Assembly: GCA_041674705.1 (NCBI GenBank) | Contig: JBAYVF010000002.1 | Location: 14,330-78,329, forward strand | From: Candidatus Omnitrophota bacterium | GTDB lineage: Bacteria; Omnitrophota; Omnitrophia; Omnitrophales; Aquincolibacteriaceae | DNA: 64,000 nt | Direction of reading: 5' to 3' | Part shown: positions 26,010 through 50,000 of the stretch, in pieces | Position numbering within the stretch: position 1 is the stretch's first letter | Layout of the letters: the number at the start of each line of letters is the position of its first letter | Notes under the pieces: generated by a model | Seen by the model: the letters and a program-made list of their open reading frames with translations, nothing else | What the model was told of the DNA's origin: nothing | Database searches by the model: none | Program-made: the position numbers and the translations under genes

Positions 26010-26065
26010 TCCACGGTCCACGCACCACGTTCCACGTGGTCCATGGATCGTGGCCCGTGGAGCGG
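26010..26065. repeat. heptamer-unit inverted repeat (4+4 units), possible terminator
   Basis: Starts on the base after the mnmA stop: tccacgg tccacgc accacgt tccacgt | ggtccat ggatcgt ggcccgt ggagcgg, centred on cacgtg. Confidence 0.8.
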
Positions 26066-26080
26066 CGTTATTCGCATTGA

Positions 26081-26109
26081 TTGACAACGCTCGCTAAAAT
26101 GATAATAAT
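26081..26109 (+). promoter_or_regulatory. sigma70-type promoter for the bactofilin-HTH gene
   Basis: TTGACA (26081-26086), 17 nt, AATAAT (26104-26109). AAGGAG RBS downstream. Confidence 0.4.
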
Positions 26110-26153
26110 GACTCAGGTTTTTTACCCCACAATATCTCCAAAGGAGAGCGACC

Positions 26154-26690
26154 ATGGCCAATAATAAAAAAAAGGAAGAGACCCAGGAGAAGATCCTCGA
26201 TGTCGACGCAAGCATGCAGGGGACCATTTCGTTTAAAGACCCTGTGAATCTGCGGATCAACGGAAGTTTCGAGGGCAAACTCGATACGCGCGGCAATCTT
26301 ACGATCGGCGAGAACGCCAAGGTTAGCGCGAATATCCACGGCGACAATATTGTGATCGCCGGAAAAGTGTCCGGGGATGTTATCGCGACCCGGAGTCTTT
26401 CCATCCTCGGAACGGCGACGCTTAAGGGAAATCTCACGACGCCGCGCTTGAGCATCGGAGACGGCGCGATCCTTCAAGGGCTAGTGAGTATGCAAGGCGT
26501 GGGCGCTTCAGACGGGGCGGATACTTTCCTGACCCTCAAGGATGTGGCGCAGTATCTGGAGGTAGAGTCGAAAGTGATCGAGGAATGGGCTCACTCCAAA
26601 AAGATTCCGGCGCGTTTTGACAATGGCCACTGGGTTTTTACCAAGGCCGAAGTGGATCAATGGATCCAGCAGGAACGGGCTCGGGTCTAA
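26154..26690 (+). CDS. bactofilin domain fused to a C-terminal excisionase/MerR-type HTH
   Basis: Bactofilin beta-helix repeats (INGSFEGKLDTRGNLTIGENAKVSANIHGDNIVIAGKVSGDV). C-terminal LTLKDVAQYLEVESKVIEEWAHSKKIPA HTH_17-like. Confidence 0.75.
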   Translation: MANNKKKEETQEKILDVDASMQGTISFKDPVNLRINGSFEGKLDTRGNLTIGENAKVSANIHGDNIVIAGKVSGDVIATRSLSILGTATLKGNLTTPRLSIGDGAILQGLVSMQGVGASDGADTFLTLKDVAQYLEVESKVIEEWAHSKKIPARFDNGHWVFTKAEVDQWIQQERARV

Positions 26691-26769
26691 GATTCTAAAT
26701 TCGGACTCCGTTGTTTTTTCGGTCATAAAGTATTCCCATCTCTTTTCGTCCTAAGGCGGTTGATCTATC

Positions 26770-27078
26770 ATGAATAACATGCTGACCCTCGATGAAGTGA
26801 AGAATTTTCTCGAGGTCGAACAACAGGTGATCGAAAAGTTCATCCAGGACGAAGTTTTGCATGCCTACAAGATCGGCGGCGTGTACATCCGTTTCCGGAA
26901 AGAAGAGGTGCTTGGCCTCAAGTATGACGTCCTTCTTAAGAAAAAAAAGACGGAGACCTCGGGTTCTTTGGGACAACGGTTGTGGAATTTTTGGCGATTC
27001 AACAATTTTTACATTATCTCCATCATGGTCATTATAGTATTGGCGTATTGGTTCCTTCACACCACGGTATCCTCGTAG
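26770..27078 (+). CDS. excisionase-type HTH protein with C-terminal TM segment
   Basis: LTLDEVKNFLEVEQQVIEKFIQDEVLHAYKIGG, then FYIISIMVIIVLAYWFL. Confidence 0.6.
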   Translation: MNNMLTLDEVKNFLEVEQQVIEKFIQDEVLHAYKIGGVYIRFRKEEVLGLKYDVLLKKKKTETSGSLGQRLWNFWRFNNFYIISIMVIIVLAYWFLHTTVSS

Positions 27079-27087
27079 GGCGCTCTT

Positions 27088-27471
27088 TTGAAGATCCTTC
27101 AGGGTATTGATCTGGTCAAGGTTGAGCGGATGGAGCGAATGATCGGGAGGCCGTCCGGGCAAGCGTTTCTGAACCGCGTCTTTAGCACTTCGGAGCAGGC
27201 CTACTGCGGCTCCAAGCGCATGAAATTCGAGCATTACGCAGCTCGCTTTGCCGCCAAAGAAGCGCTTCTGAAGGCCCTGAAAGTTCGTCCGAAAAAGGAT
27301 CGACGGCTTTCCGGTATTGAGGTGGGACGCGAAGCGACCGGGAAACCGTTTATTGCCCTGAATGCGGAGAGTCGTAAGCAGCTCCGTATTCCGTCACAGG
27401 CACAGATCGAATTGTCGGTTGCGCACGAACGGGAATATGCGATTGCGACCGTCGTCATCGTGATTCCCTAG
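27088..27471 (+). CDS. acpS: holo-[acyl-carrier-protein] synthase
   Basis: GIDLVKVERM ... FAAKEALLKAL ... SVAHEREYAIA. Confidence 0.85.
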   Translation: MKILQGIDLVKVERMERMIGRPSGQAFLNRVFSTSEQAYCGSKRMKFEHYAARFAAKEALLKALKVRPKKDRRLSGIEVGREATGKPFIALNAESRKQLRIPSQAQIELSVAHEREYAIATVVIVIP

Positions 27472-27585
27472 TACCTCAACCCTATTGATTTGTGAGGGGG
27501 GAGACTCAGTGCTATGGTGAGCGGTGATTGAAATTGGCAACTGCCAATTTCAATCGAGTCGAACCATTAGGCGAAAGAGAGAGCT

Positions 27586-28359
27586 ATGAAACAGAAGACA
27601 CTTATCATCAATGCGGATGACTGCAATCTGACCTCCCAGGTCACGGAAGCCATTTTGAAGGCCCACGAGAACGGGATCGTGACCAGCACGACTTTTTTGA
27701 TCAACCTTCCCATGGGACCGGACGTGGTCCGGGAACTTTTGGCCAGGAAAAAACTCGGGATTGGGTTGCATTTAAATGTCACGCTCGGGAAACCTGTGGC
27801 CAAGCCAGGGCTTGTGAGATCGCTTCTTCAGAAGGATGGACGCTTCAAAAAAAAGGATGAGTACTCTGCAAAAAAACTGCCGCCTGTTTCTGAGATCAAG
27901 GAAGAGTTCAAAGCTCAGCTCCAGAAATTCGTGAAGACCTTCAAACGATTACCGACCCATGTGGATGTCCATCATCACATGCACGATTTCAGGCCGTTCC
28001 TGGAAGCGCTTGCGGCAGTTGCCGGGAAACACGATCTGCCTGTCCGTTGGACGAGGCTTTTGACCGAACCGGATGTCAGGAACGCGCATAAGGATCTCAG
28101 GACCACGGACCATTTTTATGGCAACATCGACCCGCACACGTTCTGGACGGAAGAAGTATTGAGGCATTTGCTTTTCACACTTCCGGAGGGAACGAGCGAG
28201 ATCATGTGCCATCCGGGATGGGTGGACGATGAGCTTTGCGCTATCAGTTCGCTGACGATCCCGCGCGAGCGGGAATATCAGCTTTTTAGTTTGAAAGAAT
28301 TACGCAATTATATCAGCCATCTTGGGATCAAACTGACGCACTTTGGGGGTTTGAAGTAA
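27586..28359 (+). CDS. ChbG/YdjC/HpnK-family carbohydrate deacetylase
   Basis: LIINADDCNLTSQVTEAILKAHENGIVTSTT, and HxDxHHH-type motif HVDVHHHMH. Confidence 0.85.
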   Translation: MKQKTLIINADDCNLTSQVTEAILKAHENGIVTSTTFLINLPMGPDVVRELLARKKLGIGLHLNVTLGKPVAKPGLVRSLLQKDGRFKKKDEYSAKKLPPVSEIKEEFKAQLQKFVKTFKRLPTHVDVHHHMHDFRPFLEALAAVAGKHDLPVRWTRLLTEPDVRNAHKDLRTTDHFYGNIDPHTFWTEEVLRHLLFTLPEGTSEIMCHPGWVDDELCAISSLTIPREREYQLFSLKELRNYISHLGIKLTHFGGLK

Positions 28360-28373
28360 GTCGGGGGGGAAGG

Positions 28374-28565
28374 CTATTTGACGATCGTGCCGTCTAACGT
28401 CTCGAAAATGATCGTCACGAGATTGTGGCACTTGGGGCATTTGATCTGTTTGAAGGCCTGGATGTTGTCGTGCTTGGGGCGGTACATGATCGAGAGGATC
28501 TTGGTAACGAAGCTGGCTTCACTGCCGGACCATTGGCAAGCGGGACAGTTATAAGCTGATTTCAT
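28374..28565 (-). CDS. small zinc-ribbon protein
   Basis: CPAC ... CPKC pairs. 63 aa. Confidence 0.5.
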   Translation of the reverse strand: MKSAYNCPACQWSGSEASFVTKILSIMYRPKHDNIQAFKQIKCPKCHNLVTIIFETLDGTIVK

Positions 28566-28690
28566 CGGTGCCTCTCGTTAGAGTTTAATAACCTTTGTTG
28601 CGCATAAAAAGCATCGGCTTGGGCGCTTAAAAACTTTAAATGTGTTTGGTTTCGGGGATATCTTCTCGAGTGAGGAAAAGGAGGCTATTA

Positions 28691-29029
28691 ATGCGGGTTC
28701 GATGGATCGTTTTTGTCTTTATTCTGATGTTGCTGGTGCCTTTTCGTGCGGCTCACGCCAATTCGCCCGGCTATTGGAAGCAGATGGGGCTAACTTTCGG
28801 CCGCGGCGTGAAGAATCTTGTCAGTTGGCCGTATGAGATCCCTTATACCATCGCCAAACATGACAGGGACGATAATGGAAATCCACGTTTTTTTCGTGAC
28901 ACAGCCGGTTTTTTTGACGGTACGTTTCGCGCTGTGACAAGGCTAGGATGCGGTGCCTGGGACGTCCTTTTTTCCGTGGTGCCCGGGGCCCAGAACGATT
29001 TGCCTCTCACACCCGAGGCTTTCTTTTAA
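28691..29029 (+). CDS. secreted protein, possibly exosortase-associated TIGR04073-like
   Basis: AAGGAGG RBS before ATG 28691. Signal peptide. GRGVKNLVSWPYEIPYTI and GCGAWDVLF strings. The family call is from memory only. Confidence 0.45.
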   Translation: MRVRWIVFVFILMLLVPFRAAHANSPGYWKQMGLTFGRGVKNLVSWPYEIPYTIAKHDRDDNGNPRFFRDTAGFFDGTFRAVTRLGCGAWDVLFSVVPGAQNDLPLTPEAFF

Positions 29030-29199
29030 AACGCGCTGCACGCTTTCCTTGTAAAACCCTTCCATCTTAAGTAGAATACCGCCTCTTGTTTCATCGGGAG
29101 GCGGGTAAAACCTTCCTTTTTTGAAGTTTTTTTGTGCGTGTGCCGTAGACGGCAATCCATAAGCCGTCACGGCAACGTATTGATTTATTGAAAATCAAT

Positions 29200-29272
29200 G
29201 GGCCGGTAGTTCAGTTGGTAGAACGCCACAATGGCATTGTGGAGGTCAAGGGTTCAACTCCCTTCCGGTCCA
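29200..29272 (+). tRNA. tRNA-Ala (anticodon GGC)
   Basis: Hand-folded cloverleaf: acceptor gggccgg/ccggtcc with G3:U70, D arm gttc/gaac, anticodon loop atGGCat, T arm aaggg-ttcaact-ccctt. CCA not encoded. Confidence 0.9.
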
Positions 29273-29384
29273 TTCTTCTTCGCTCTGTCCTTAACGGCAG
29301 AGCTCCGAAGGAATAGGGTAAAGGTTGGAGCTTGAGAAAGGTTCCTGCGAAGCTGTGAGCGATAAGCTGCACAGCGAAGTAGAA

Positions 29385-29400
29385 CCCTTCCGGTCCACCA
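29385..29400 (+). repeat. duplicate of the tRNA-Ala 3' end (cccttccggtcca) followed by CCA
   Basis: 13-nt exact repeat of 29260-29272, located 112 nt downstream of the tRNA. Confidence 0.75.
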
Positions 29401-29421
29401 ACTCCCAATGAGTTGGTGCCA

Positions 29422-29467
29422 CGCCGTCAGGACTCATGGAAGTCCTGACGGCGACGGCATTCTTTTT
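29422..29467 (+). terminator. 12-bp perfect hairpin plus T-run (possible terminator)
   Basis: cgccgtcaggac tcatggaa gtcctgacggcg, then acggcattcttttt. Confidence 0.45.
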
Positions 29468-29476
29468 ACGTCATCT

Positions 29477-29563
29477 GCGAGAGTGGCGGAACTGGCAGAC
29501 GCACTGGACTCAAAATCCAGCGGTAGCAATACCATGAGAGTTCGATTCTCTCCTCTCGCACCA
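29477..29563 (+). tRNA. tRNA-Leu (anticodon CAA), type II with long variable arm, CCA encoded
   Basis: Acceptor gcgagag/ctctcgc, D arm gcg/cgc, anticodon stem ctgga/tccag with loop ctCAAaa, variable arm ggta/tacc, T arm gagag-ttcgatt-ctctc. Confidence 0.9.
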
Positions 29564-29632
29564 AATTCCAGTAATTTGGTACGACGCCATGGCGGCAAAA
29601 GGAAGGCCGCCTATGGCTACGAGGAGATAATC

Positions 29633-29722
29633 GAAGGGAGCACTTGATTATCAACATGACTAATGTCATGTTGATGAGTGCGGGTGGCCGACCTGAAGCG
29701 AATGAAATGAGCGGAAGGCGCC
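29633..29722 (+). repeat. copy Y of the ~95-nt structured repeat (see 22987..23085)
   Basis: Perfect hairpin tcaacatgac taat gtcatgttga, gtggccgacc box, ggcgcc box. Abuts the duplicated tRNA-Leu 3' end. Confidence 0.55.
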
Positions 29723-29739
29723 GATTCTCTCCTCTCGCA
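29722..29739 (+). repeat. duplicate of the tRNA-Leu 3' end (cgattctctcctctcgca)
   Basis: 18-nt exact repeat of 29543-29560, located 158 nt downstream of the tRNA. Confidence 0.8.
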
Positions 29740-29767
29740 TGTTCTAATTCTCGGAGAAATCCTGACC

Positions 29768-32227
29768 ATGGCCAGCGGATTCAAACAGTATCCTTTCGAG
29801 ACAATAGAAAAAAAGTGGCAGACCTACTGGACTGACCATAAGACCTTCCGTTCTCCGGACCCCGGCGAGCCCGGCGGAGAAAAACAGAAATATTACGTCC
29901 TCGATATGTTCCCGTATCCTTCCGGTTCCGGTCTCCACGTCGGGCATTTGGAAGGGTATACCGCAACCGACATCGTCAGCCGCTATAAACGGATGTGCGG
30001 GTTCAATGTCCTGCATCCCATGGGTTGGGACGCGTTCGGGCTTCCCGCCGAGCAATATGCCATCGAGACCGGCACGCACCCCCGCGATACCACGAAAAAA
30101 AATATCCAGACCTTCAAGCGCCAGATCCAGCAGGTCGGTTTTAGCTATGACTGGGAACGCGAGATCGATACGACCGATCCCCATTATTACCGCTGGACGC
30201 AGTGGATCTTTATGAAGCTTTTCGAAAAAGGCTTGGCCTACGAATCCGAGATCCCGGTGTGGTGGTGCGATGGCTGCAAGGCCGTCCTTGCCAACGAAGA
30301 GGTGGACGCCAGCGGTACCTGTGAACGCAAGGGCCACAAGGATGTTTATCGCCGCCCGCTTCGTCAATGGATCCTCAGGATCACGGCCTATGCCGAACGG
30401 CTTTTAAAAGACCTCGACCTTCTGGATTGGTCGGAGCCCATCAAGGAAATGCAGCGTAACTGGATCGGGAAGTCCACCGGCGCGGAGGTGAAATTTCAAA
30501 TCTCAAATTTAAAATCTGAGATCTCTGTGTTCACCACACGACCGGACACGCTTTTCGGCGCGACGTATATGGTGCTGGCCCCGGAGCACGCGATGGTGGC
30601 AAAGATCACAACGCCGGAACAAAAGAAAGCCGTGGAAGCATATGTCGCCACCGCGACACACAAATCCGATCTCGATCGCACGGACCTCGCCAAAGAAAAG
30701 ACCGGTGTTTTTACCGGAGCTTATGCGATCAATCCCGTAAATGACAAAAAGATCCCGGTGTGGATCGCGGATTATGTGCTTATGGGTTACGGAACCGGCG
30801 CCATCATGGCAGTGCCGGGGCATGATACACGCGATCTTGAATTTGCGAAGGCTTACAAGCTTCCGATTGAAATTGTGGTGCAGGCACCCGAAGGGAAAGA
30901 ATCGTTGGGGTTTGTGGGGGACGGTGTCAGCGTGAATTCTGGGCTGATTACAGGCCTTCCTACGCCGGAAGCGAAACAAAAGATCACGAAATGGCTCGAA
31001 GAAAAGAAGATCGGGAAGGCAGCGGTTCAGTATAAGCTTCGGGACTGGCTTTTTAGTCGGCAACGTTATTGGGGGGAACCGATCCCGGTCGTGCATTGCG
31101 TGAAGTGCGGCCCGGTGCTTATTTCCGAGAACGAATTGCCGCTTAAGCTTCCTGAGATGAAAGATTACACACCGACCGGGAATGCCGAGCCGCCTCTTGC
31201 CAAGGCGAAGGATTGGCTGAAATGTAAATGCGCGAAATGCGGTGGCCCGGCCATGCGCGAAACGAACACCATGCCTCAATGGGCGGGTTCCTGTTGGTAT
31301 TATCTCCGCTACCTCGATCCGAAGAACGCGAAAGCAGCGGTCGATCCGAAAAAAGAAAAATACTGGATGAATGTGGATCTTTATGTCGGCGGCGCGGAAC
31401 ACGCGGTGCTTCATTTGCTCTATTCCCGGTTCTGGCACAAAGTGCTTTATGATATCGGAGTTGTTTCCACGCTTGAGCCATTCCAAAAACTCACGAACCA
31501 GGGCATGATCCTGGGCGAAGACAGCCAGAAGATGTCCAAGTCACGCGGCAATGTGGTGAATCCCGATGAGATGATCGCGCAATATGGCGCCGACAGCCTC
31601 CGGCTTTATGAAATGTTCATGGGCCCGCTGGAAATGACCAAGCCTTGGGCGAATTCCGGAGTGGAAGGCGTCTACCGGTTTCTCGGAAAAGTGTGGCGCC
31701 TCTTTATCGATAAGGACGACAAGCTTCACGCGAACATTGTTCAGCGCGAGCCGAATGCTTCGGAGCTCAAGACGCTCCACAAGGCAATCAAGAAAGTGAC
31801 GGAAGATTTTGAAGGCTTGCGATTTAATACGGCGATCTCGGCCTTGATGATTTTTATGAATGAGATAATGCCGGGAGAAGACCACTCGCGGGAAATCCTC
31901 GAAAAATTCCTGCTTCTTCTGGCGCCGCTCGCGCCCCATGTGGCGGAAGAATTATGGCAGCGCCTGGGTCACGCCAAGACGCTTGCGTATGAAAAATGGC
32001 CCGCGTATGATGACCAGTATCTCGTCGAAGATCAGGCGGAGATGGCTATTCTGGTGGGAGGTAAAGTACGTGCAAAAATGGTCGTTTCTCGTAGTGAGAA
32101 CAACGATGTGATCCAACAGATGTCGCTGGAACACCCCCGCGTGAAAGAGCTGCTCGTGGGGAAGGTCGTCAAGAAGGTGATCATCGTTCCGGGGCGCACG
32201 GTCAACCTTGTGGTGGTGGATGCCTAA
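29768..32227 (+). CDS. leuS: leucyl-tRNA synthetase
   Basis: 819 aa. HVGH (HIGH) motif, [17 protein letters not shown] motif. Confidence 0.97.
30491..30527. repeat. heptamer-unit element in-frame inside leuS
   Basis: aaatttc aaatctc aaattta aaatctg agatctc, encoding [12 protein letters not shown] in a variable LeuS loop. Shares a 22-mer (1 mismatch) with 47698-47719. Confidence 0.7.
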
Positions 32228-34265
32228 AGTCGAGATCAGGAATCAAAAGATCCTTGTTGGGAAAAAAGAAGTTCCGCTTGTCTCCGGCGAAATCCATTAT
32301 TGGCGCCTCAACCCTCATGCCTGGCGCGAAGCCCTCAAACGCGTCAAAGAAATGGGGCTCGAAATCGTTTCCACCTACGTCCCCTGGGATTTCCACGAGT
32401 ACAAGCGCGGCCATTTTGATTTCACCGGCAAGACCGATGAAGCGCGTAATCTTAAAGCCTTTCTCGAATTGACCCGCAAGGAAGGCTTTTGGGTCATCCT
32501 TCGTCCGGGTCCCTATATTTACAGTGAATGGCCGCGGGATGGCGTTCCGGATTATGCCTACCAGTATCACCGCTTGCATCCCAAGTTCCTCGCCTACGCC
32601 AAAGAATACCTGAAACAAGTCAGCAAGGTTTTCATGCCGTATCTCGCGTCGCGCAAGAATGGCCACATTCTGATGTTGCAGGCGGATAACGAGATCGATC
32701 CCTGGCCGGATGTCTTCGGGCATCAGTACGGACTTTCGAAAAAGCCGGGACTTTTCCAGGATTTCATGCGCGATTTTTACAAAGGGAATCTTTCGGCGCT
32801 GAACGAATGCTGGGGGACAAATTACACTTCTTTCCGGGAAGCGTCGCCTTTCATCGCGACCATGCTCGCTCATGAAACGGGTCTTCCGCTGAAGGGGGAT
32901 AAAGAGCTCAAGCGGCATCTCGATTATTTTAAGTTCAAGTATTGGTATTCCAAGGAGGTTGCGAAGGGGAGCATCCAGATGTATCGCGATCTCGGGGTCG
33001 ATGTTCCGATCTACTTGAACACTTATCCTTTCTTTTACGCGCACGATTGGGCTGCTTTTCAGGAAGTCTCGGATGCCGTGGGGATCGATCTCTATCCTAC
33101 CAATGAATTCAAAGAAGATGAGTTCGAACACCGGAAATTCTGCGACAAGATCCGTTATCTTTCGAGCGTTTCCAAACTTCCCTTTATTGCGGAATTCCAA
33201 TCCGGGATCTGGCACGGCCGTCATTATGAAACGAGCGTGCTCACGCCCAACCACTACCGGATGATGTGTCTTTCCGCATTCCTCGCCGGGGTCAAGGGCT
33301 GGAATTGGTACATGCTGGTGAATCGCGACAATTGGTATATGTCGCCGATCAATGAGTGGGGGCGGGTGCGTGGCGAATTGTATGATGTTTTTACGCAGAT
33401 CGTTTCCGCTTTCAAGCAACTCAAGCCGACTTCGCTTAAAAAGATAACCGAGATCGGCGTCACCTTCAATCCGCTCCAGTACGCGGCCCGGACGCTCACG
33501 CACAATAGTCCCATTCTCGTCGCGCTTTACCAGGGAGATGTCGACTATGATATGAGCGATCCTCGCTGTAAACTCCCTGAAAAGAAAGTGCTCTTTTATT
33601 CCGGGAACCAGTGGCTTGAGAAGGCGGCGCATCAGAATCTTCGCAAGTATGTCGAGGCAGGCGGAACTTTGGTGGCATTCCGCTCGTTCCCTCGCAAAGA
33701 TGATAATTTTAAACCATGTCAGGTTGTCGGGTTTGAAGAGCCGGAGCGCACCCTTTTTGAGTTTAAGCGGCATTTCAAAATAACCCTTGGCAAAAGATCC
33801 GTGCCGATCGCGATCAATAGTTCGGTTTATATTTTTAAGGCTCAAGGGTGCGAAAAGATCCAGGCGGATCTCGGAACCTACGGAAGACAGACCGTCGGCT
33901 ACATCAAAAAGATCGGCAAGGGAAAGATCATTCACCTGGGGATGGAGCCGGTTCCGGAGCTTGTGCTCGGGGTTTTGAACTATCTCAAAACGCCGCTGGT
34001 CAGTTATTCGACAACGCGGGACATCAAAACGGCGCTCTTCAGCCGTGGGAATCGGTATTTTCTGGTGGTGGTCAATAATGGCAATGAAGACAAGAGCGCG
34101 ACGATCTGTCTTCCGGCGCTTGACGGTATCCCCGGAAAAATGACCGCTCGCGATCTGATGAACGGGGAAAAAACGGTTTATTCAAAAGAAGGCCGTCACC
34201 CGATCAATATTCATGTGGCGCGCAAAGACGGCCGTGTTTTAGAATTTTTGTTCTCCCGCAGTTAA
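32220..34265 (+). CDS. glycoside hydrolase family 35-like beta-galactosidase
   Basis: [10 protein letters not shown]...[21 protein letters not shown]...G.FDF.G..D...FLEL....[16 protein letters not shown] and acid/base-type ADNE. ATG overlaps the leuS stop by 8 nt. Confidence 0.75.
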
Positions 34266-35591: not shown

Positions 35592-35686
35592 AGGAAACGG
35601 ACTTCGAATGGCGCCGCTTTCGAAATATCAAAACACCCTCCTTGTTTTTCTGCTCTTAGCGCTCGCCATCGTTATCGCTGTAAGAT

Positions 35687-35761
35687 GGTACTTGGTACAT
35701 AGTACATAGTACTTGGCGAAAAGCGGGGGTGACGGCTCGCCATGTACCATGTACTAAGTGC
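35687..35761. repeat. heptamer-unit inverted repeat (intergenic)
   Basis: ggtactt ggtacat agtacat agtactt gg ... ccatgtac catgtac taagtgc. The arms are imperfectly complementary. Confidence 0.75.
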
Positions 35762-35851
35762 TCTGCGCCGATTACAAGTGCTGCTTCAAGAAAATTCCAA
35801 CCGAATATTATATTTATATTATTCATTAAGTTTATGTATAATGCACATATT

Positions 35852-38158
35852 ATGAGACTGCCGTTCTTGTGGGTAGCGCTGGGTTTTTCGTTCGGGATCG
35901 TCATGGAAAAGTATTGGAATTTTCCCGTCCGCTGGCTTGTGAGCGGACTTTTCGCGGGGATTCCTATTCTCTGGCTTTTTCGCGGGCGAAGGTGTTTTCT
36001 GGCTCTTTTTATTCTTCTCTTGGGTTGCTCAGGGATTCTTTGGGCGCGCCTGGATGCTTATGTCCCGGCGAATGCGGTTCAGAATTTTGTGAGCCCCGAG
36101 CGCATGACACTTCGGGGAATTGTCAATTCTTTGCCCGAAATGAAAAAGAGGGGAAAGAAGACCACGGTTTCGTTGATTCTTAAAGCGCGTTCGATCACAA
36201 GGCAAGAGGGTGGGCGACGGAAGTTCCGCAAAGTAAACGGTAATGTGCAAGTTTTTTTGCTCCAGTCACCGGTTCTTCCTCAGGCCGGGGATGAGCTTCG
36301 TCTCTATGGGGAGCTGAGTGCGCCGAAGCAGGTTCTGAACCCAGGAGAATTCGACTACGGAAGTTTTTTAGCTCAAAAAAACATCAGCGCCCTTTTTCAG
36401 ACGATCGGACAAAAAAGCGTTCGGGTGGTTCGGACAGGGTCGAGATTTTTGCCGGCCCGGATCCTGGCAGAAACACGGCGAAATTTAGCCGCGTTGATTG
36501 ATAGGCTTTACTCCGCTTCGGAGTCTGCGATCCTGAAGGCGCTGGTGCTGGGGTTGAGAAGCGATGTGGCGCCTGACGTCCGGAGCCAGTTCATGAAGAC
36601 CGGAACGATCCATTTGCTCGCGATCAGCGGATTGAATATCACGATGATCGCCGGAACTTTTTATCTGATCTTTCTTTTTTCGGGGCTCGGGTATCGCAAA
36701 ACCTCGTTTTTGACGATCCTGATCGTAACCCTTTACGTGGGGCTTGCCGGGGCCGGGATCCCGGTCCAACGCGCGGGGTACGGCTCCGTACTCGTGCTCG
36801 CAGGAGTTCTCATTGGACGGCCGGCAAACCTTTTGAACGCGCTTCTTTTTTCTTTTTTTATGATTCTCCTCTGGAATCCCAAAAGCCTTTGGAATATCGG
36901 ATTCCAACTTACTTTTCTCTGCGTTTTCTCTCTCATGCTGATCCTGCCGCTTTTGTCACAATTCAGCGCCTGGACCTTGTCGCTGGGTTCAAGTCTTGCG
37001 GTGCTTTTCGGGACTTTCCCCGTCGTTCTTTATCATTTCAATATTTTTTCGCCCGTGAGCATCCTCGCGAATCTCGCGGCGATACCGCTTTTTGACGCGG
37101 CTCTTTTCAGTGCGCTTTTCGCCCTGATCTTTAGCGGGGTGCCGCTCTTGAATATGCTTTTGATGAAGGGATCTTCCTGGATCCTCGGGATCGGGCTTCT
37201 CTGGGTGAAATATCTTTCCACGTGGCGGTGGGGATATTGGTTCCTGGAAAGACCGTCCCCGGGCCTGCTTGCCGCGTATTACGCAAGCCTGGCGATGATC
37301 CTGTTCTTTCATAAAAAGGTTTTTGGTGGAAAGCGTTTGCTGATGGGCTGTCTTATCGGTTGCTGGATCGTGTTTTCAATCTCGTTTTTTATCGGATCCG
37401 GAAAAGGATTCGAGCTCACCTTGCTCGCGAGTGGCAGGAACCAGATCGCGCACGCGCGCTTCGCGAGCGGGGCGCATTGGCTTTTAAATGCCGGACGAAA
37501 TTTTCCCTCCGACCAGGGCGAATGGCTAGTCGCGCCTTTTCTCAGGAATCGGGGGATCCAGCGATTGGAGGGAATCCTGATGGCCGATCTTTCCAAAAAG
37601 AACACCGGAGGTCTCGCCTCGATCTTGCGGGACTTTCCAATCCGTTATCTGCTTTATCCTGTTGCATCTTTGTACGGGCCGGAGGAGTTTTGTATAAACC
37701 TCCGGAAGCTGGGCCGCAAGGCGAAGACTTTTCAGTCGGGAGATGAGGTCCGGATGGGGCCGGAGAAAATACGGGTGATCGCCGAGTCGCCAAAAGGGGC
37801 TGCTTTCTTGATTGAATCGGGTCCTTGGCATATCCTTTTTATCTCTCGGTGGGAGGGCGAGATCTTCGCTCAACTTCTCGTGAGCGGCGAGCTTGAAATC
37901 CACGCAGTTTTCTTGCCAGGAGCCGTGCGGGAGATTCCGGGTGAGTTTCAAGATTGGTTGGACCGGGCCCGGCCCTTGCTGGTTATTTTGCCGGACTTGC
38001 CTCAGGAGCTTGCGGCATATTTGACTTCCCGTCGCGTCCCGTATCTTGATCTGAAGAATACCGGGGCGTTGCGTTTTAGAAGAAACGGCCCCCGGCTCGA
38101 GCTCGCGTCGTTCCTGTGGGGGTCTTTGGGCGTTTACTCGTATCCATATTCAGGCTAA
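35852..38158 (+). CDS. comEC: ComEC/Rec2 DNA-internalisation channel with C-terminal metallo-beta-lactamase-like domain
   Basis: Multi-TM competence domain (TGTIHLLAISGLNITMIAG). Start moved to MRLPFLWVAL (35852) because the track start 35729 lies inside the repeat element. Confidence 0.85.
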   Translation: MRLPFLWVALGFSFGIVMEKYWNFPVRWLVSGLFAGIPILWLFRGRRCFLALFILLLGCSGILWARLDAYVPANAVQNFVSPERMTLRGIVNSLPEMKKRGKKTTVSLILKARSITRQEGGRRKFRKVNGNVQVFLLQSPVLPQAGDELRLYGELSAPKQVLNPGEFDYGSFLAQKNISALFQTIGQKSVRVVRTGSRFLPARILAETRRNLAALIDRLYSASESAILKALVLGLRSDVAPDVRSQFMKTGTIHLLAISGLNITMIAGTFYLIFLFSGLGYRKTSFLTILIVTLYVGLAGAGIPVQRAGYGSVLVLAGVLIGRPANLLNALLFSFFMILLWNPKSLWNIGFQLTFLCVFSLMLILPLLSQFSAWTLSLGSSLAVLFGTFPVVLYHFNIFSPVSILANLAAIPLFDAALFSALFALIFSGVPLLNMLLMKGSSWILGIGLLWVKYLSTWRWGYWFLERPSPGLLAAYYASLAMILFFHKKVFGGKRLLMGCLIGCWIVFSISFFIGSGKGFELTLLASGRNQIAHARFASGAHWLLNAGRNFPSDQGEWLVAPFLRNRGIQRLEGILMADLSKKNTGGLASILRDFPIRYLLYPVASLYGPEEFCINLRKLGRKAKTFQSGDEVRMGPEKIRVIAESPKGAAFLIESGPWHILFISRWEGEIFAQLLVSGELEIHAVFLPGAVREIPGEFQDWLDRARPLLVILPDLPQELAAYLTSRRVPYLDLKNTGALRFRRNGPRLELASFLWGSLGVYSYPYSG

Positions 38159-43137: not shown

Positions 43138-43177
43138 AAAAAAGGACAGGCATGAATAAACTTGCCTGTCCCTTTTA
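43136..43177. terminator. bidirectional terminator between convergent holA and rpsT
   Basis: aaaaaaaa ggacaggca tgaataaact tgcctgtcc cttttaat. Confidence 0.7.
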
Positions 43178-43195
43178 ATAAAACAGTGGTAAGAA

Positions 43196-43459
43196 TTACT
43201 TTTTCTTGATCTTGGCGAGGAAAAGCGCGATACGGGATTTTCTCCGGTCGGCACGGCCGTGCGGGATCACACCTTTGGAGACCGCATGGTCATAACGGGC
43301 GACCAGGGTGGCTCCGACGCTTTGGGCCTTTTCAGGCTCGGAGGCGAGCTGGGCCAGTTTCTTGCTGAGAGATTTCAGCTCAGAGAGAACGGCCATGTTC
43401 TTCGCGCGTTTTTTAGCATCACTTCGAATACGTTTTGCAGCAGAACGAATATTGGGCAT
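43196..43459 (-). CDS. rpsT: 30S ribosomal protein S20
   Basis: MPNIRSAAKRIRSDAKKRAKN... 87 aa. The longer track ORF (to 43642) is an upstream extension. Confidence 0.9.
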   Translation of the reverse strand: MPNIRSAAKRIRSDAKKRAKNMAVLSELKSLSKKLAQLASEPEKAQSVGATLVARYDHAVSKGVIPHGRADRRKSRIALFLAKIKKK

Positions 43460-43562
43460 TTCGATGACTCCTTTAGGTGGAAAAAGTGGCGGTAATGTAA
43501 CACGGGGTGCGAGCTCTGTCAACGAGGTTCCCCACACCCATGCCTCGGGGAAGCGGCATCTG

Positions 43563-45149
43563 ATGAAGGCCGCCGCGGTCGTGGGGATCATGACGCTAGT
43601 GGGCCGGGTCCTCGGGCTTTTCCGGGATATTGTGAGCGCCAAAACTTTCGGGACAAGCTGGCAGTGGGACGCTTTTCTTTACGCGTTCATGTTGCCGAAT
43701 CTTTTCCGGCGGATCGTGGGGGAAGGCGGGCTTACGAGCGCTTTCATACCGGTCTATAACGAGATCTCGGCGAAAGTTAGTAAGGAAGAGGCGTTCCGTT
43801 TCACCAGCATCACTGTGACGTTTCTGGCCTGCATGCTTTTTGTTTTTATCCTCGCTGTGGAGGGGCTCCTGGCTCTTCTGATCGGGATCGGCTTTCGTTC
43901 TCCGACCGTGATGCTCACGCTCGATCTTTCCCGGGTCCTTTTTCCGTACCTCTGGTTTATCTCGCTTTATGCGATCGGAATGGGCGTTCTGAACAGTCAC
44001 CGTCACTTTTTTGCCCCGTCGCTCGGAGGCCCGATCCTCGATCTGGTCTGGATCGTGGGAGTGCTTTGGGTGCCCGCGTGGGCGGCCGGGGATTACGTCG
44101 AAAGGATCCGCTGGCTTTCGTACGCGATCCTCTTCGGCGGCTTTTTGCATGTGGCCGTGGAGATCCCGCCGCTTTTGAAGATCGGTTTCCGCTTCCGGTG
44201 GATCTGGGATATGAGTTATGTGTGGCTTAAAAAAGTTTGGACCTTGCTTTTGCCCGTCACACTGAGTTTTGCGGTCGTGCAGATCAATATCACCATCGAT
44301 ATGACGCTCGGGATGCTGATCGGCCCCGGGGCGAACTCGAGCCTTTGGTACGGGAACCGCCTGATGCAATTTCCGCTTGGGATCTTCGCGCTCGCGATGG
44401 GAACGGTGCTTCTTCCGATGATGAGCCAGCAGATCGCGCGGGGCGAGAAGGAAGCTTCCAAGAAAACGCTTTCTTTCGCGCTCAGAAGCATTTTCTTTAT
44501 CATCCTGCCATCGTCGGTCGGGCTGATCGTGCTTCGCGAACCGATCATGCGCGTTCTTTTTGAACGCGGAGAATTCGATGCTGTTTCGACTGCCCGTAGC
44601 GCCGCGGTACTTTTGGGCTACACGATCGGGCTTTTTGCGTTCGCGGGACAAAAGATCATGAATAGTGGCTACTATGCGGCCCATGATTCCAAAACGCCGA
44701 TGAGGACCTCCATGGTCTCTCTTTGCTCCAATATAGTTCTGAGTTTGATCCTGATGGTGCCATTCAGGGAGGCGGGACTTGCGATCGCGACCTCCATTTC
44801 CGGGATCTTCCAGTTCGGGCAGTTGATCTATTATTATCCGAAAAAAGTGGGCGAATTCCCGTTCCGCGAAGTCGCATACTCTTTTCTCAGGATCCTTCTT
44901 GCGTCGGTGGTCATGGGGTTCGTTTGTTATGGAAGCTGGGAACTTCTCAAATTCTGGATCCCCGGTGCGAGTACCCGCGCGCAATTCGTGCAGGTATTCG
45001 GCAGTATCCTGATCGCGACGGTCTCATACCTCGGGATCTGTTTTGTGTGCCGCGTGCCGGAGGTGAAAGAAGCCTTTGCCTGGTTCCGGAAAAAGAAAAA
45101 GATCGCCGCAGATCCCTCGGAAGCTGAAAAGCTGATCGATGGAACATGA
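43563..45149 (+). CDS. murJ: lipid II flippase MurJ/MviN
   Basis: MKAAAVVGIMTLVGRVLGLFRDIVSAKTFG N-terminus, ~14 TM segments. The track start 43308 overlaps rpsT and is rejected. Confidence 0.9.
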   Translation: MKAAAVVGIMTLVGRVLGLFRDIVSAKTFGTSWQWDAFLYAFMLPNLFRRIVGEGGLTSAFIPVYNEISAKVSKEEAFRFTSITVTFLACMLFVFILAVEGLLALLIGIGFRSPTVMLTLDLSRVLFPYLWFISLYAIGMGVLNSHRHFFAPSLGGPILDLVWIVGVLWVPAWAAGDYVERIRWLSYAILFGGFLHVAVEIPPLLKIGFRFRWIWDMSYVWLKKVWTLLLPVTLSFAVVQINITIDMTLGMLIGPGANSSLWYGNRLMQFPLGIFALAMGTVLLPMMSQQIARGEKEASKKTLSFALRSIFFIILPSSVGLIVLREPIMRVLFERGEFDAVSTARSAAVLLGYTIGLFAFAGQKIMNSGYYAAHDSKTPMRTSMVSLCSNIVLSLILMVPFREAGLAIATSISGIFQFGQLIYYYPKKVGEFPFREVAYSFLRILLASVVMGFVCYGSWELLKFWIPGASTRAQFVQVFGSILIATVSYLGICFVCRVPEVKEAFAWFRKKKKIAADPSEAEKLIDGT

Positions 45150-45154
45150 CAATA

Positions 45155-45237
45155 GTAGGTAGTAGGTGGTATGTAGTATGTGGTAAGAAAAAATCGAGAT
45201 TGGTTTTGCTACCTACTACCTACCACTTACTACATAC
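45155..45237. repeat. heptamer-unit inverted repeat downstream of murJ stop
   Basis: gtaggta gtaggtg gtatgta gtatgtg gtaag ... ctaccta ctaccta ccactta ctacata c. Confidence 0.8.
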
Positions 45238-45254
45238 GCTTTTAGAAGGTTCTG

Positions 45255-46697
45255 ATGCGCGTTAAAGTTTCATTCAATCCATTACGTCCTATTGCTGAGA
45301 AACTTCCGCTGACGTCCGGCATTTATCTGATGCGCGACGCCCGGGGTGAGATCCTCTACATCGGGAAAGCCAAATCTCTCCGCAAGCGAGTGCGTTCCTA
45401 TTTCAAGGTCCCGGCGCCCATTCCCAAGATCACGATCCTGATGAGCAAGGTGCGCTCGATCGATCATATTGATACGCCGACGGAGGTCGATGCTCTTCTT
45501 CTCGAGGCGCATCTGATCCACAAGCACCAACCTCGCTACAATCAGGACCTGAAAGACGATAAAAGTTTTCCTCTTCTTAAGATCACGCGTGAAAAATTCC
45601 CCAGGATCTGCGTGACGCGTCAAAAAACTGATAAAAACGCGATCTATTACGGTCCTTACACCGACGCGAAGCTTCTTCACCAGGCCGTGAACCTGATCAA
45701 TGACCTTTTCCCGATCCGGAAATGCCAGGCGCTTCCGAAGACCGCGTGCCTCTATTACCATATCGGACAATGCCTGGCCCCCTGCATCAAGCCGGAAGTG
45801 AAACCGGAATACGACCGGCTGATCGACGAGGTGAAGCGTTTTCTTGGGGGAGGCAAAAAGAGTTTTGCCCAATATCTCGAAGACCGGATGGGGCGAGCAA
45901 GCCGGGAGCTGCGATTTGAGGATGCTCAGTTTTTCAAGGAACAGATCGATGCTCTTTCAAAGCTTCGAAAAAAACGCTTCCTTCCGAAAAATTCTTGGCA
46001 GGGGATCTCTCTTTCAGCGACGCTTGAGTTGAAGCAACGCTTAAAACTCGAGAGGATCCCCGAGCGCATCATTTGTTTCGATGTCTCGAATGTGCAGGGC
46101 GATCAGGCCGTGGCTTCCAAGGTGAGCTTTTGTCGGGAACTTCCGGACAAGTTCGGGTACCGGCGCTACAAGATTCGTGGAGTTTCCGGGGTGAACGATT
46201 ACGCCATGATCGCCGAAGCCTTGGCGCGCATGCTCCGTGGTATCAAGGACGGCCGGGAAGATTTTATGCCGGACCTCATCATGATCGATGGCGGGAAGGG
46301 CCATCTCAATACGGCCGCCAGGGTCCTTGTGCGGGAGGGGATGGAGCAGATTGAACTTATCTCCATCGCTAAACAATTCGAATGGATCCATTCGCCGAAG
46401 TTCCGGGCGCCGCTTGTCATGGCCTCCGATTCTCCGGCCCTCTATCTTTTGAAAAAGATCCGGGATGAGGCGCACCGATTCGCCATCACGTATCATCGCA
46501 AGCTCAAGTCGAAGGCTCTCCGGCGGTCGGCTTTGGATGATATCCCGGGGATCGGGGAGAAGCGAAAGCGCATTCTGCTCGGTCATTTTAAATCGGTGGA
46601 GGAGATCCGCCGCGCTGGCATCGAAAAGCTTCAAGCCGTCCCCGGAATCGACCCCAAGGTTGCCGCCAAGATCGCCTCTTTTTTTAAGCTCTCCTGA
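45255..46697 (+). CDS. uvrC: excinuclease ABC subunit C (compact, 480 aa)
   Basis: GIY-YIG (SGIYLMRDARGEILYIGKAKSLRKRVRSYF), UVR domain (FEDAQFFKEQIDAL), RNaseH-like endonuclease domain, C-terminal (HhH)2. Confidence 0.9.
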   Translation: MRVKVSFNPLRPIAEKLPLTSGIYLMRDARGEILYIGKAKSLRKRVRSYFKVPAPIPKITILMSKVRSIDHIDTPTEVDALLLEAHLIHKHQPRYNQDLKDDKSFPLLKITREKFPRICVTRQKTDKNAIYYGPYTDAKLLHQAVNLINDLFPIRKCQALPKTACLYYHIGQCLAPCIKPEVKPEYDRLIDEVKRFLGGGKKSFAQYLEDRMGRASRELRFEDAQFFKEQIDALSKLRKKRFLPKNSWQGISLSATLELKQRLKLERIPERIICFDVSNVQGDQAVASKVSFCRELPDKFGYRRYKIRGVSGVNDYAMIAEALARMLRGIKDGREDFMPDLIMIDGGKGHLNTAARVLVREGMEQIELISIAKQFEWIHSPKFRAPLVMASDSPALYLLKKIRDEAHRFAITYHRKLKSKALRRSALDDIPGIGEKRKRILLGHFKSVEEIRRAGIEKLQAVPGIDPKVAAKIASFFKLS

Positions 46698-46699
46698 AA

Positions 46700-46726
46700 C
46701 CATTCAAATACCCGGTATTTGAATGG
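46700..46726. terminator. perfect 11-bp hairpin 3 nt after the uvrC stop
   Basis: ccattcaaata cccgg tatttgaatgg. A partial second copy (tacccggtatttga) is at 46747-46760. Confidence 0.45.
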
Positions 46727-47021
46727 TGGAAAAGCCGCTTTTCAAGTACCCGGTATTTGATTGGGTGGAGCCAGGTTTCGAAGCCTGGTTCTAGGGGAGC
46801 GCTCTCGCAGCGAAGCAGATTTTCTGAATGTTATATCCTGCTATAAGTTGCTATTTGCTCCTTAGGACAATCTATAGCATTAGAAATCACCGAAAAGTCC
46901 TATTTCTAACCCAAAAATCACCCCATTTCGCAAAGAAAAATGAAGTTGTGCCCTTGCGGATACCTGAATATGTGTTACCTTTTCATAAGATTTTAATAAT
47001 AGAACGTTAAGGCCGAGGCAA

Positions 47022-50000
47022 ATGAACCCAAAAACATCTCTACACAAGGGGCTTTTTCCACGCTTTTCTCTCAAGGCGATCAGTCTGTTCACGGTGATCG
47101 TTTTCTTGTGTTCCGACTTCCTTGCCTTTCCTTCCCAGGCTCTGGCAAGCTCGGCAACAGCGGTTCCCGGAACAAATCCAAGTCCCAAGTCTGAGTGGGT
47201 CATTCCTTCCGAACTTGGGAAAATAGACAACGTCTATTTTCCGACTACAGACCAGAGACCACAGACCGCAGACTCCCTCTCCCATGGGGAGAGGGACGGG
47301 GTGAGGGGGAAAAGTCTCCGGTCTCCAGTCTCCGGTCTCCAGTCTCAAGCCCGCGGCAGCGGGCTTGTCGTGCTGATCCAAGACGCTCACAGCGTTCCGG
47401 ACGCTCAGCGGTCGCTTGAAAAACTGATCGAGTATCTCCAAGCGCAATATGGCGTCAAGACCGTGGCACTGGAGGGCGCGGAAGGGAAACTCGACCCCAC
47501 GCTTTTCCGCTTGTTCCCTGATTTGAAAAAACGCGAACAGATCTTTGCGGATTATTTAGCCAGCGGCGAACTTTCCGGCGCGGCGGCGGCCAGCGTGCTT
47601 TCTCCCTATAAATCGGATTACGTCGGGATCGAGGACTGGAAACTTTATCAGGAAGGCGTGGCAGCATTTCTGTCCGGCCTTAAGAAGCAGGCAGAGCTCA
47701 AATCTCAAATTTCAAATCTCAAAGAAGAGCTGCGGAATTTAAAACAAAAATACTATTCCAAAGAAGCGATGGAATTTGACGGAAAGCTCGGTGCGTGGAA
47801 TGAAAACCAGAATAACTTTCCCGAGTTTTTGAGCTATCTTGCCAAGTACTACGTACCAAGTACTAAGTACTCAGCGTATGGTGCATCGCACATGGCACTT
47901 GGCTCGCTATTCAATACGCTGGAGCAAGAGAGGAAATCCGATCCTCGGCTCGAATCGGAAGTCAAAAAACTCGCCAAGTATGCGCGCGAGATTGCGCCAA
48001 GCGCAAAGCTGAACGGCCTAGCCCAGGATTATCAAACCGGTCGTTTGTCTTCTGCGGCTTTCGCGTATGAGATCGCGGAACTTTTACGAAAAGTCGGTAA
48101 GCCGCTCCCGCAGGGCCAGCCGGATCTTCAAAAAATGATCGCCAATCATGCGTCTCTTATGAATGTAAAAGGTCCGGCGCTCATGAAGGAGCTCGAGGCG
48201 TTCCTGGAAGAGGTGCGTGCGCAACTTTTTATAACGCCGGAGGCAAAGACCGTTGCGGAGCTGGACAAGCAACTTCAGCGGCTGAGCAAACTTTCGAAGT
48301 TTGAATTGAGTCGCGATGAATGGCGATCGCTCCAGACTGGAGACCAGAGACTGGAGACCGGAGACTCCGAGCTCGTGAAATTTCAAGAAGATCTCGCCGT
48401 TGTTCTTTCGAGTTGTAGCGAGTTTATAAGATTTTACGAACTTGCCTTGAAGCGTGAAAATGTTTTTTCTGAAAGAGTCTCTAGTCTCTTGTCTCATGTC
48501 TCTAGTCCCGTTGCGGTTGTGGCCGGCGGCTTTCATACCGACGGCCTCGCGGCGAAGCTCAAAGAACAGGGGATTTCGTACGTGGTTGTTTCTCCGGCCA
48601 TGAAGGAAGTTCCGGCCGATAGCCGCTATTTCGACCAGATGCAGGGTAAGGTCTCCTGGCAGAAGTATTTCAGGCCGAAGGACGGGAAGATCGATCTTTA
48701 TGATGCGTTTGCCCGAGCAACTGTCGATCGTTTGTCTTCGCGCCGTACGCCGTACTCCGTACTCGGTCGCGAAGAAGGTACGGCGTACGGTGTACGGAGT
48801 ACGGAGTTAAAAGAGTGGCGTGACGAGGTGATCCGAAAATTAGCGACCGAAGGTCGCGTCGCAGAACACTCGAAATATACCCGCTTCATCGATCAACAAG
48901 CCGCCGGAAGTTCCGAAAAATTTCAAGCGCTTAAGGAAAAATGGACTGCGAAACTCGAGAAGTTTATCGGGAAACTCCAGTCCCTTGGGCAAAACAACCA
49001 GCTCACCGAAGCGAATATGGCGAAGCTCCTTTCCCAACCGGCGAACCAAACTCCTTACGCTGTTCCGTTTGTCCCGGGCGCGAGCGTGCCGGAGAGCTTT
49101 TTAGGGAATGCGGCCGAGAGGATAGAGGATAGTGAAAAACCAAACCCCAGTAAACGTTCCGAACTGCGGGATGAAAAGGGTGAGTCGTTTCCAGGCGAGA
49201 ATTCAGAGGCCGGCTTTGCTTCGGCAGCGCAAAATGATTTCAATGGAAAAAATAAGGAAAATTTTAAAAAAAGAAAAATCTTCAGTCCGTTTAGTCCATT
49301 ATTTCTTTGCGTCGGATTTTTGAGTGTTTTTTTATTCGTCCTTTCGGGTTTTGGAAGTATTGCTCGTGAACCACTTCAAACGCCTGCTTCTGCTACGACC
49401 CAATCTCTTGAGAGTGGTGTGTCTCGTACGCGCGTTGCCTCGAAATTCGTAAAAGGACCCGAAGGATGGCAGTTTTATTTAAACGGAAAAAAGTCTCCCG
49501 CTCCTTTCGGAATTGTTTACCAGCCGGTACCCCCGGGCAAGCATATCGATAATTACCGTAATAATTTTGGAAAACTCTATCGATATTTGCTTGATCCCGA
49601 GGAAGGAGGACTGGGGCATGCGAAGGCCCTGAATCGTCTTGGAATAAAATCAATCAGGGTTTACGACCTTCCTTCGGAGGATGAGGCGGATATTGAAGCG
49701 GTAAAAAATATTTTTAGAAAGGTTTACGCCCAATATGGCATCCGCGTGTTTGTAGGTAATTATGCCGGAATGTACTTTGGTTTTGATTATAAAAAAGCGG
49801 CGGATCGCGAGAAGATCAAAAAGCAGGTTGTGAAAACGGTGGCTACCTACTGCGATGAATCGTGGATTTTAGGATGGCAGATAGGCAATGAGAACAATTA
49901 CTATGTGAACGGTGGGTTGTTTGCCCAACGGATCAACCTTTCTCTGGAAGAATACTACTCCTTTATGGATGAATTAGCGTTAAGCATTCGGAAAAATCTG

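Follow-up and report, generated by a model that had tools for sequence, protein, structure and literature searches.

What process would build short runs of seven-nucleotide units, set many of them opposite a reverse-complement partner, and give them different sequences from one site to the next? The question is raised by a 64-kb stretch (hereafter, the window, in whose coordinates all features are given, each on its forward strand) of a 180,783-bp contig of Candidatus Omnitrophota bacterium, assembled from a metagenome with MEGAHIT (JBAYVF010000002.1, positions 14,330 to 78,329). Most of these arrays lie at the 5′ end of a giant gene, 11,506 codons long (47022..64000, according to the gene call; the frame is open from 46989), which runs off the window, and the others are found in leuS and in the spacers behind three further genes. 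The explanation that we favour, with moderate confidence, is that the arrays are hypermutable heptanucleotide simple sequence repeats (SSRs) whose complementary arms are homogenized in concert, which are kept where they are tolerated, and which serve as frameshift switches in the giant gene.

Period-7 arrays and their inverted partners

The elements had been recognized in a first-pass annotation, made from the sequence alone, as runs of 7-nt units with dyad symmetry and a different core at each locus. Tandem Repeats Finder detected period-7 arrays at all of the coordinates named there and an additional one, at 49117, that had been missed. In a lag-match scan of the window for periods of 4 to 15, we identified 14 period-7 arrays at a loose threshold (score ≥9), compared with 0.47 in 30 Markov shuffles (maximum 2), and seven at a strict threshold (score ≥14), compared with none in dinucleotide shuffles. 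The other periods from 4 to 13 gave 0–2 arrays each, and period 14 was raised solely as the double of period 7. The periodic construction is thus real and non-random, and the suspicion that such runs might occur at chance frequency does not hold for the window. The same preference is evident in 241 kb of orthologous loci, with 46 period-7 arrays versus 0–4 for each of the remaining periods between 4 and 12, and 7 is also the only enriched period in the related loci L082 and L124. All 14 arrays of the window fall between positions 26010 and 49132; ten of them are located within open reading frames (ORFs) and in frame, one in leuS and nine in the giant gene. The units of an array share a core and differ in one to three variable columns, usually two.

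The claim that each locus has a core of its own was correct only in part. Many cores do differ, but GAGAC/GTCTC occurs in four arrays of the window (the array at 47313–47346 is a reverse-complement copy of the one at 48334–48367 at 32 of 33 positions), TCAAAT in two (leuS at 30491 and site 2 of the giant gene), and GTAC-based cores at three loci (the 35686 pair, 47842 and the 48741 pair). A limited set of cores, including GAGACC, GTACGG, CAACGC, GGGGAAC, CTCAAAT and GTAGGTA, recurs within and between genomes (for the genome of the window, over these 64 kb only), and a single core can prevail at several sites of one genome, as does GTACGG in L082. Given that the cores differ, the elements are neither one dispersed repeat nor one protein-binding site, as had been concluded from the outset, and recognition by a single DNA- or RNA-binding protein was rejected on the same ground.

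In many bacteria, no class of long SSRs is more over-represented than the heptanucleotide repeats, for which an origin by polymerase slippage has been put forward (PMC4692102, PMC4679880). The arrays of the window share with this class the head-to-tail 7-nt units in numbers above chance, the multitude of motifs and the enrichment over other unit lengths (Mrazek et al., 2007, as summarized in the same two papers). However, the repeats described there are mostly intergenic direct arrays, whereas ours are mostly genic, in frame and arranged in complementary pairs; furthermore, their arms co-evolve, and their cores are replaced at positions that stay conserved from genome to genome. Of the two kinds of analogue proposed initially, the cyanobacterial STRR heptamers proved to be the right neighbourhood, whereas the REP-like palindromes did not, most of the arrays being in-frame coding sequence in the giant gene and leuS. 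Some of the STRR, Xanthomonas GGGAATC and Nostoc GGGGAYT heptamers are inverted and able to form stem-loops (PMC4692102), and in heterocyst-forming cyanobacteria the gene for RNase P RNA contains STRR copies, as indicated by the title of Vioque (1997), cited in PMC2858038. As in the present case, these heptamers differ in length from one related strain to another and may be accommodated in a tolerant part of a functional gene; their small number of recurring unit families may likewise have a counterpart in the limited set of cores seen here. In the RNase P RNA, the STRR is located in helix P12. The arrays studied here differ from STRR in their host phylum, Omnitrophota rather than heterocyst-forming cyanobacteria (with unpaired arrays in Verrucomicrobiota), in their unit families, in having no G-quadruplex motifs, and in their placement mostly within protein-coding sequence (10 of the 14 in ORFs) rather than between genes, with arms that can stand 110–190 nt apart around conserved codons.

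Six inverted pairs were identified in the window (26010|26035, 35686|35737, 45153|45206, 47243|47313, 48334|48475 and 48741|48778). The array at 47842, with its GTAC core, is self-complementary, and those at 30491, 47697 and 49117 are unpaired. In the window together with part of the related loci, 47 of 102 arrays had a reverse-complement partner within 300 nt, versus 9 of 306 control segments. The pairs form long stems, with z-scores of −2.9 to −5.8 as RNA and −2.8 to −4.3 as DNA, the two DNA strands folding about equally well; lone arrays gave no structure. The reported dyad symmetry is real.

Stems of this kind could reflect selected RNA structures, namely, terminators, 3′-end stabilizers or processing sites for RNase III or another enzyme, with the heptamers as raw material. 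The predicted stems are indeed long and stable, their arms co-vary between genomes, and three pairs begin at or just past stop codons, two of them with promoter-like sites downstream in a promoter scan. Nevertheless, a search of the window with Rfam covariance models, at the gathering score, recovered two tRNAs only and nothing at the arrays. The 20 non-redundant helices that we compared are Watson–Crick paired at 86% of positions, and their transition-type mismatches, read on the sense strand, comprise 15 G–U and 20 A–C, with no excess of G–U. A selected sense-strand RNA helix should favour G–U; the lack of such a bias, together with the equal folding of both DNA strands, points to a strand-symmetric process at the DNA level. 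Selected RNA structures also leave aside the lone arrays, which do not fold, and offer no reason for the 7-nt period; we consider them improbable. As for intrinsic (Rho-independent) terminators in particular, these were ruled out, given that none of the pairs was called in a terminator scan and none is followed by a T tract.

Conserved sites and co-evolving arms in the giant gene

The giant protein starts with a signal or transmembrane segment and contains GT2, methyltransferase-like, PLP-enzyme, transglutaminase-core and ATP-grasp domains (Pfam). Nine arrays, all in frame, are concentrated in the first 2.1 kb of its gene, and none is found in the following 14.9 kb; the same 5′ concentration is seen in the giant gene of L082. 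Because three 7-nt units equal 21 nt, or seven codons, the peptides encoded by the arrays have a period of seven residues. Site 1 consists of a left arm, (NNCAGAC / GAGACCN)x4, at 47243..47274 (amino acids 76–85), and a right arm, (RGTCTCC)x5, at 47313..47346 (amino acids 98–109). Site 2 (47697..47723, amino acids 226–235) is a lone array, (CTCAAAT)x4, which encodes LKSQISNLK and has the same core as the leuS array, and site 3 (47842..47871, amino acids 275–284) is the self-complementary array (AAGTACT)x4. Sites 4 and 5 are the two arms of a long-range pair, the left one, (AGACYRG)x5, at 48334..48367 (amino acids 439–449) and the right one, (WGTCTCW)x5, at 48475..48507 (amino acids 486–496), with a folding energy of −70.4 kcal/mol (z-score −5.3); the 107 nt between them encode a conserved segment, F.RFY..A..RE.VF. 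Sites 6 and 7 form the inverted pair (CCGTACN)x3 ... (GTACGGN)x4, with the arms 13 nt apart (48741..48807, amino acids 574–596; −41 kcal/mol, z-score −5.1), and site 8 (49117..49132, amino acids 699–705) is the short in-frame array (AGAGGAT)x2.3.

For comparison, we assembled homologues of the N-terminal 800 residues of the giant protein and 39 metagenome loci, which make up the 241 kb mentioned above. All intragenic arrays of the giant gene coincide with gappy, variable linker columns of the protein alignment. Twelve related genomes carry arrays at the same protein linkers and in the same murJ–uvrC spacer, with different cores, and about nine linker sites plus this spacer are array-bearing in relatives with 45–61% protein identity and also in L120, at about 30%. 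The survey of related genomes that had been suggested along with the first description yields arrays at orthologous sites with cores that have been replaced and, in some cases, no array at all. At site 1, which directly precedes the conserved VVLIQDAH motif, the arms read GAGACC|GGTCTC in the window and L086, GTACGG|CCGTAC in L082 and L085, GGGGAAC|GTTYSCC in L084, and GCGGATG|CCATCCR in L093; in L083, the GAGACC|GGTCTC core is found at a linker just upstream, with a loop of 16 nt only. The orthologues of site 2 are TCAACGN in L082, CAACGCG in L083 and L086, and ATCTCAA in L085, and that of site 3 is AGTACGGx4 in L091, with one unit less in L122. In the vicinity of site 8, arrays are present in L083 and L085 just past the last aligned residue (amino acids 686–689). 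These comparisons also bear on the trivial explanation that the arrays are artefacts of assembly or sequencing, as might be feared of a metagenome contig produced with MEGAHIT. However, they leave the reading frames open and recur at orthologous positions in assemblies from ENA, JGI and NCBI that are independent of one another and were produced by different assemblers. An artefact was therefore rejected, and its probability is close to negligible.

The arms of a pair change together. Across genomes, the arms of sites 4 and 5 lie 110–190 nt apart, on either side of the conserved F.RFY..A..RE.VF segment, and fall into at least five core classes (GAGAC, GTACGG, GGGRAAC, CGGGAYT and CAACGC), the arms matching each other in every genome. 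When genome pairings were shuffled, the complementarity seen within genomes was reached in 7 of 20 000 permutations for sites 4|5 and in 2 of 20 000 for sites 6|7, and the arms of site 1 likewise change together across genomes. Given that the arms flank conserved coding sequence, a pair is not one inserted element; rather, it consists of separate tracts evolving in concert. Furthermore, at site 5 and at the leuS site discussed below, the stretch that carries an array is as long as the array-free stretch of other genomes, which implies that the array overwrote the linker rather than lengthening it. Overall, complementarity is maintained between arrays that lie up to about 1 kb apart, and cores spread to nearby sites. 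This homogenization would most likely be achieved by template switching or short-patch gene conversion between the arms. Arrays persist only where extra or arbitrary sequence is tolerated, in spacers just past stop codons and in variable protein linkers, where they sometimes replace the prior sequence at unchanged length.

The inverted-doublet hairpin architecture of the elements and their presence or absence at orthologous sites would fit miniature mobile hairpins, such as REPINs or MITEs, that depend on a transposase acting in trans, as would the insertion of a small palindrome of another kind into one of the hairpin loops. REP/REPIN elements are further similar in forming long hairpins and in being often located just downstream of genes (PMC3116915). 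However, REPINs have a conserved sequence in each family, are extragenic and are moved by RAYT proteins (PMC3116915), whereas the arrays share nothing but their construction, with no conserved palindromic consensus and only some pairs alike, are for the most part not extragenic, and can have their arms parted by conserved host coding sequence. Neither terminal repeats nor target duplications were seen, and there was no transposase match among the twelve protein segments of the 64-kb window scanned against Pfam. The arms that flank host codons and the arrays that replace sequence at equal length are equally foreign to MITEs. Given the differences in core and the conserved codons that separate the arms, the REPIN and MITE readings were rejected, and mobile hairpins are very improbable.

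Inverted repeats of 25–33 bp around short coding segments could also behave as intragenic invertons, in which the arms mediate inversion of the enclosed segment and thereby recode or silence the gene. When the enclosed segments were inverted in silico, the reading frame survived at site 1 and at sites 6|7, whereas stop codons arose at sites 4|5. Yet all of the orthologues examined are colinear with the window protein, no assembly contains an inverted segment, the varied cores argue against one site-specific invertase, and the polymorphisms that are observed consist of unit insertions and deletions; we give this possibility scarcely any credence.

The small palindromic element in the loop of the site-1 hairpin (47275..47312, CCCTCTCCCATGGGGAGAGGGACGGGGTGAGGGGG) is translated in frame. 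It corresponds to a small dispersed palindrome, CCCTCTCC..GGAGAGGG..GGGGTGAGGG, of a family that is also present at L028 10786, L067 18922, L101 1622 and L063 ~3482, that is, in loci of other Omnitrophota and of Verrucomicrobiota; in L063 it again adjoins a heptamer array. In Nostoc, too, small dispersed repeats are nested in heptamer hairpins. Site 2 falls within a helical, coiled-coil-like stretch, LKSQISNLKEEL, the residue pattern of which is similar in homologues that have different DNA cores.

Single-unit changes and frameshifted alleles

Whether the arrays are mutable can be assessed in a sister species of the window organism, for which several independent consensus assemblies were compared (L082, L091, L122 and L123). 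L082 and L091 have no mismatches over 8028 nt and differ by a single gap, one GTACGGA unit at site 4; L122 and L091 have no mismatches over 6847 nt and differ by a single gap, one AGTACGG unit at site 3. L123 matches L091 exactly over 5315 nt and then diverges for reasons unrelated to the arrays. The giant gene is open throughout in L091, whereas it stops at amino acid 460 in L082 and at amino acid 280 in L122, the frames downstream being otherwise intact (9158 and 9302 codons, respectively). The arrays thus gain or lose one unit at a time by strand slippage, and these two independent deletions of a whole unit between near-identical assemblies place them, in mechanism, among the slippage-prone SSRs. 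Since 7 is not a multiple of 3, every intragenic array is a frameshift switch, and the dense cluster in the first 2 kb would make the giant gene phase-variable in practice; frameshifted alleles are indeed observed. Single-unit changes at two arrays are the hallmark of slippage-prone repeats that work as phase switches.

Heptamer tracts of this kind are known from contingency loci. In Escherichia coli K1, the 5′ coding region of neuO contains (AAGACTC)n and the gene is ON only if n is divisible by 3 (PMC13001214), and Haemophilus influenzae hmwA has (ATCTTTC)n in its promoter (PMC8262952). As in these loci, the units of the giant gene lie in its 5′ part, are not divisible by 3, shift the frame with each single-unit change and differ in number between near-identical genomes. 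However, neuO and hmwA each rely on one long, perfect tract of 3–53 units, whereas the giant gene, with its more than 11,000 codons, has up to nine short, imperfect tracts of 3–5 units, mostly in hairpin pairs, and the likeness is one of sequence. The 5′ position and the conservation of the sites argue that selection may maintain the cluster as a contingency locus.

In a stronger version of this idea, the paired arrays would be a selected device, with hairpin-forming tracts held at fixed linkers at the 5′ end of giant genes as a population-level multi-switch of a 30-kb gene. Pairing with the complementary arm would both speed slippage and rewrite the partner by templated inverted copying, and the tracts would also seed new linker peptides with a seven-residue period. 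We regard this version as possible, albeit rather doubtful.

The most serious rival is that the arrays are purely a mutational by-product of a 7-nt slippage bias and local inverted copying, neutral or slightly harmful everywhere, in which case the arrays of the 5′ cluster would have spread locally from one permissive linker to another, and the frameshifted alleles would simply be deleterious or inactivating mutations. Consistent with a by-product, arrays occur in the essential leuS, at three permissive sites and with different cores in different phyla, are often imperfect and look decayed in L089 and L090, have no wobble bias of the RNA type, and lie in a gene that has been hit by other inactivating changes, such as that in the P0008 allele and those near the G11 tract described below. 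By contrast, a by-product does not account for array sites that, despite the turnover of their cores, are kept between genomes with as little as about 30% protein identity, for the absence of arrays from the remaining 14.9 kb of the giant gene with its many linkers, or for frameshifted alleles that have no other change in 6.8–8 kb and an intact frame downstream. We judge it unlikely, if by no means negligible. Each of the weaker rivals considered above is contradicted by at least one test.

Several points nevertheless weigh against hypermutable, concertedly evolving switches. With 3–5 imperfect units, most of the arrays are short for tracts that switch at a high rate, and the evidence for switching comes from consensus assemblies of one sister species, neither from reads nor from the window organism. 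Arrays in the essential leuS cannot be useful switches, so that the repeat class as a whole needs no function. Slippage alone leaves the preference for 7 nt and the inverted partners unexplained, and template switching is deduced from the pattern rather than directly observed. Furthermore, the truncated P0008 allele of the sister species appears, as judged from its protein, to result from a 1-nt deletion outside the arrays, so that the gene may simply undergo frequent inactivation, possibly by several routes.

Two observations concern such other routes. In another species (L124, ~6590–6605), the orthologous giant gene has its N-terminal ORF parted from the rest near a G11 homopolymer, and the N-terminal proteins from two assemblies of that species, P0001 and P0012, diverge from each other just near G11; the tract would be either a second toggling repeat tract or an Illumina error hot spot. 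In L090, an in-frame stop is present at 2273–2275 in the orthologous N-terminal ORF, beyond which the frame stays open.

A role in attaching to other cells, or in attacking them, has been ascribed to the giant genes of Omnitrophota, and we know of nothing on how these genes are controlled. If 7-nt tracts switch them, the unit counts in sequencing reads offer a direct, testable handle. In addition, annotators should be warned that a giant gene found split in a metagenome bin may represent an OFF-phase allele and not an error. The locus also constitutes an unusually clean natural record of concerted inverted-repeat evolution, with sites kept in a dozen genomes, sequences replaced and arms still complementary, and it is relevant to the part that template switching and slippage play in shaping bacterial genomes and to the way in which non-triplet DNA repeats turn into protein linkers. 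Full-text literature searches returned no paper that combines heptamer repeats with Omnitrophota, Verrucomicrobia, Planctomycetes or other phyla of the Planctomycetes–Verrucomicrobia–Chlamydiae group, and two papers on the giant genes of Omnitrophota mention neither heptamer repeats nor hairpins nor frameshifts. Thus, the kind of repeat is known, whereas the co-evolving paired arms, the in-frame position at conserved linkers and the association with a giant gene are undescribed in the literature searched.

Arrays outside the giant gene and further repeats

The remaining elements of the window are found behind stop codons and in leuS. A spacer-less palindrome, (TCCACGN)x4 / (CGTGGNN)x4, at 26010..26061 (RNA folding energy −30.3 kcal/mol, z-score −3.1) starts one base past the stop codon of mnmA (24918–26009), upstream of a promoter-like site (26081–26109) and a bactofilin gene (26154–26690). 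The position of a hairpin after mnmA is kept in relatives, with a diverged CCACG core in L011 and a different core in L009. The inverted pair (TRGTACW)x4 ... CCATGTACCATGTAC (35686..35757, z-score −4.3) overlaps the last codons and the stop of an ORF for a 33-amino-acid membrane protein (35608–35709), upstream of comEC (35834–38158); in L010, its place is taken by units of the GCAGTAG type. The third pair, (TAGTAGG/TGGTATG)x5 ... (CTACCTA)x4 (45153..45237, −38.9 kcal/mol, z-score −5.8), lies in the murJ–uvrC spacer, 4 nt past the murJ stop codon. Pairs with other cores are present in this spacer in L082 and L091 (AACGGGG|CGTTGCG), in L083 (CGTATGT|CGACATA) and also in L084. Heptamer hairpin pairs were further noticed in other Omnitrophota, at L019 3777–3907 and L022 9318–9420, directly upstream of a putative tRNA gene.

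The lone array in leuS (29768–32227), (AAATYTC / TCAAATN)x5 at 30491..30525, is in frame and encodes amino acids 242–250 of LeuRS, a variable stretch directly before VFTTRPDT, in a protein that is 88–90% identical to the LeuRS of Omnitrophota metagenome-assembled genomes. The same array is present at this site in L002, whereas L003, L004, L005 and L008 have non-periodic sequence of equal length, and L060 and L077 contain TGCGGAR arrays. L010 (~369–468) has a 63-nt in-frame insertion with a hairpin, ATCCCCGCGGAAGCGGGGAT, exactly at the site of the window array. Overall, the leuS arrays of Omnitrophota and of Verrucomicrobiota-type loci fall into clusters at three permissive sites, amino acids 242–252, 534/535 and 733–737. 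At amino acids 534/535, three unrelated cores, CACGCTC, AAAGTCY and ATCAACT, are found at one insertion point (L060 9494, L068 11772 and L077 11881), and the titles of the corresponding records give different phyla. Most arrays of the Verrucomicrobiota-type loci lack a partner, and periods other than 7 are somewhat raised there as well.

Repeats of other kinds are also present. A period-23 tandem repeat (x2) is located inside a YdjC-like gene at 27832–27876, and a period-18 tandem repeat (x2.4) inside the giant gene at 57033–57075. The giant protein contains 13 copies of the motif R[SA]E.R (RSELR, RSEAR, RSEVR, RSEMR and others), compared with 0.34 expected in shuffles. Within the window, they are spread over positions 49155–63170, for example, at 49155, 52650, 52683, 55152, 56001, 57228, 58488, 60678, 61608 and 61731. 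Each copy is encoded by different codons and lies in a linker between enzyme domains, and homologues keep an RSELR-like motif in place; the motif could be a signal for polyprotein-cleavage processing or for sorting.

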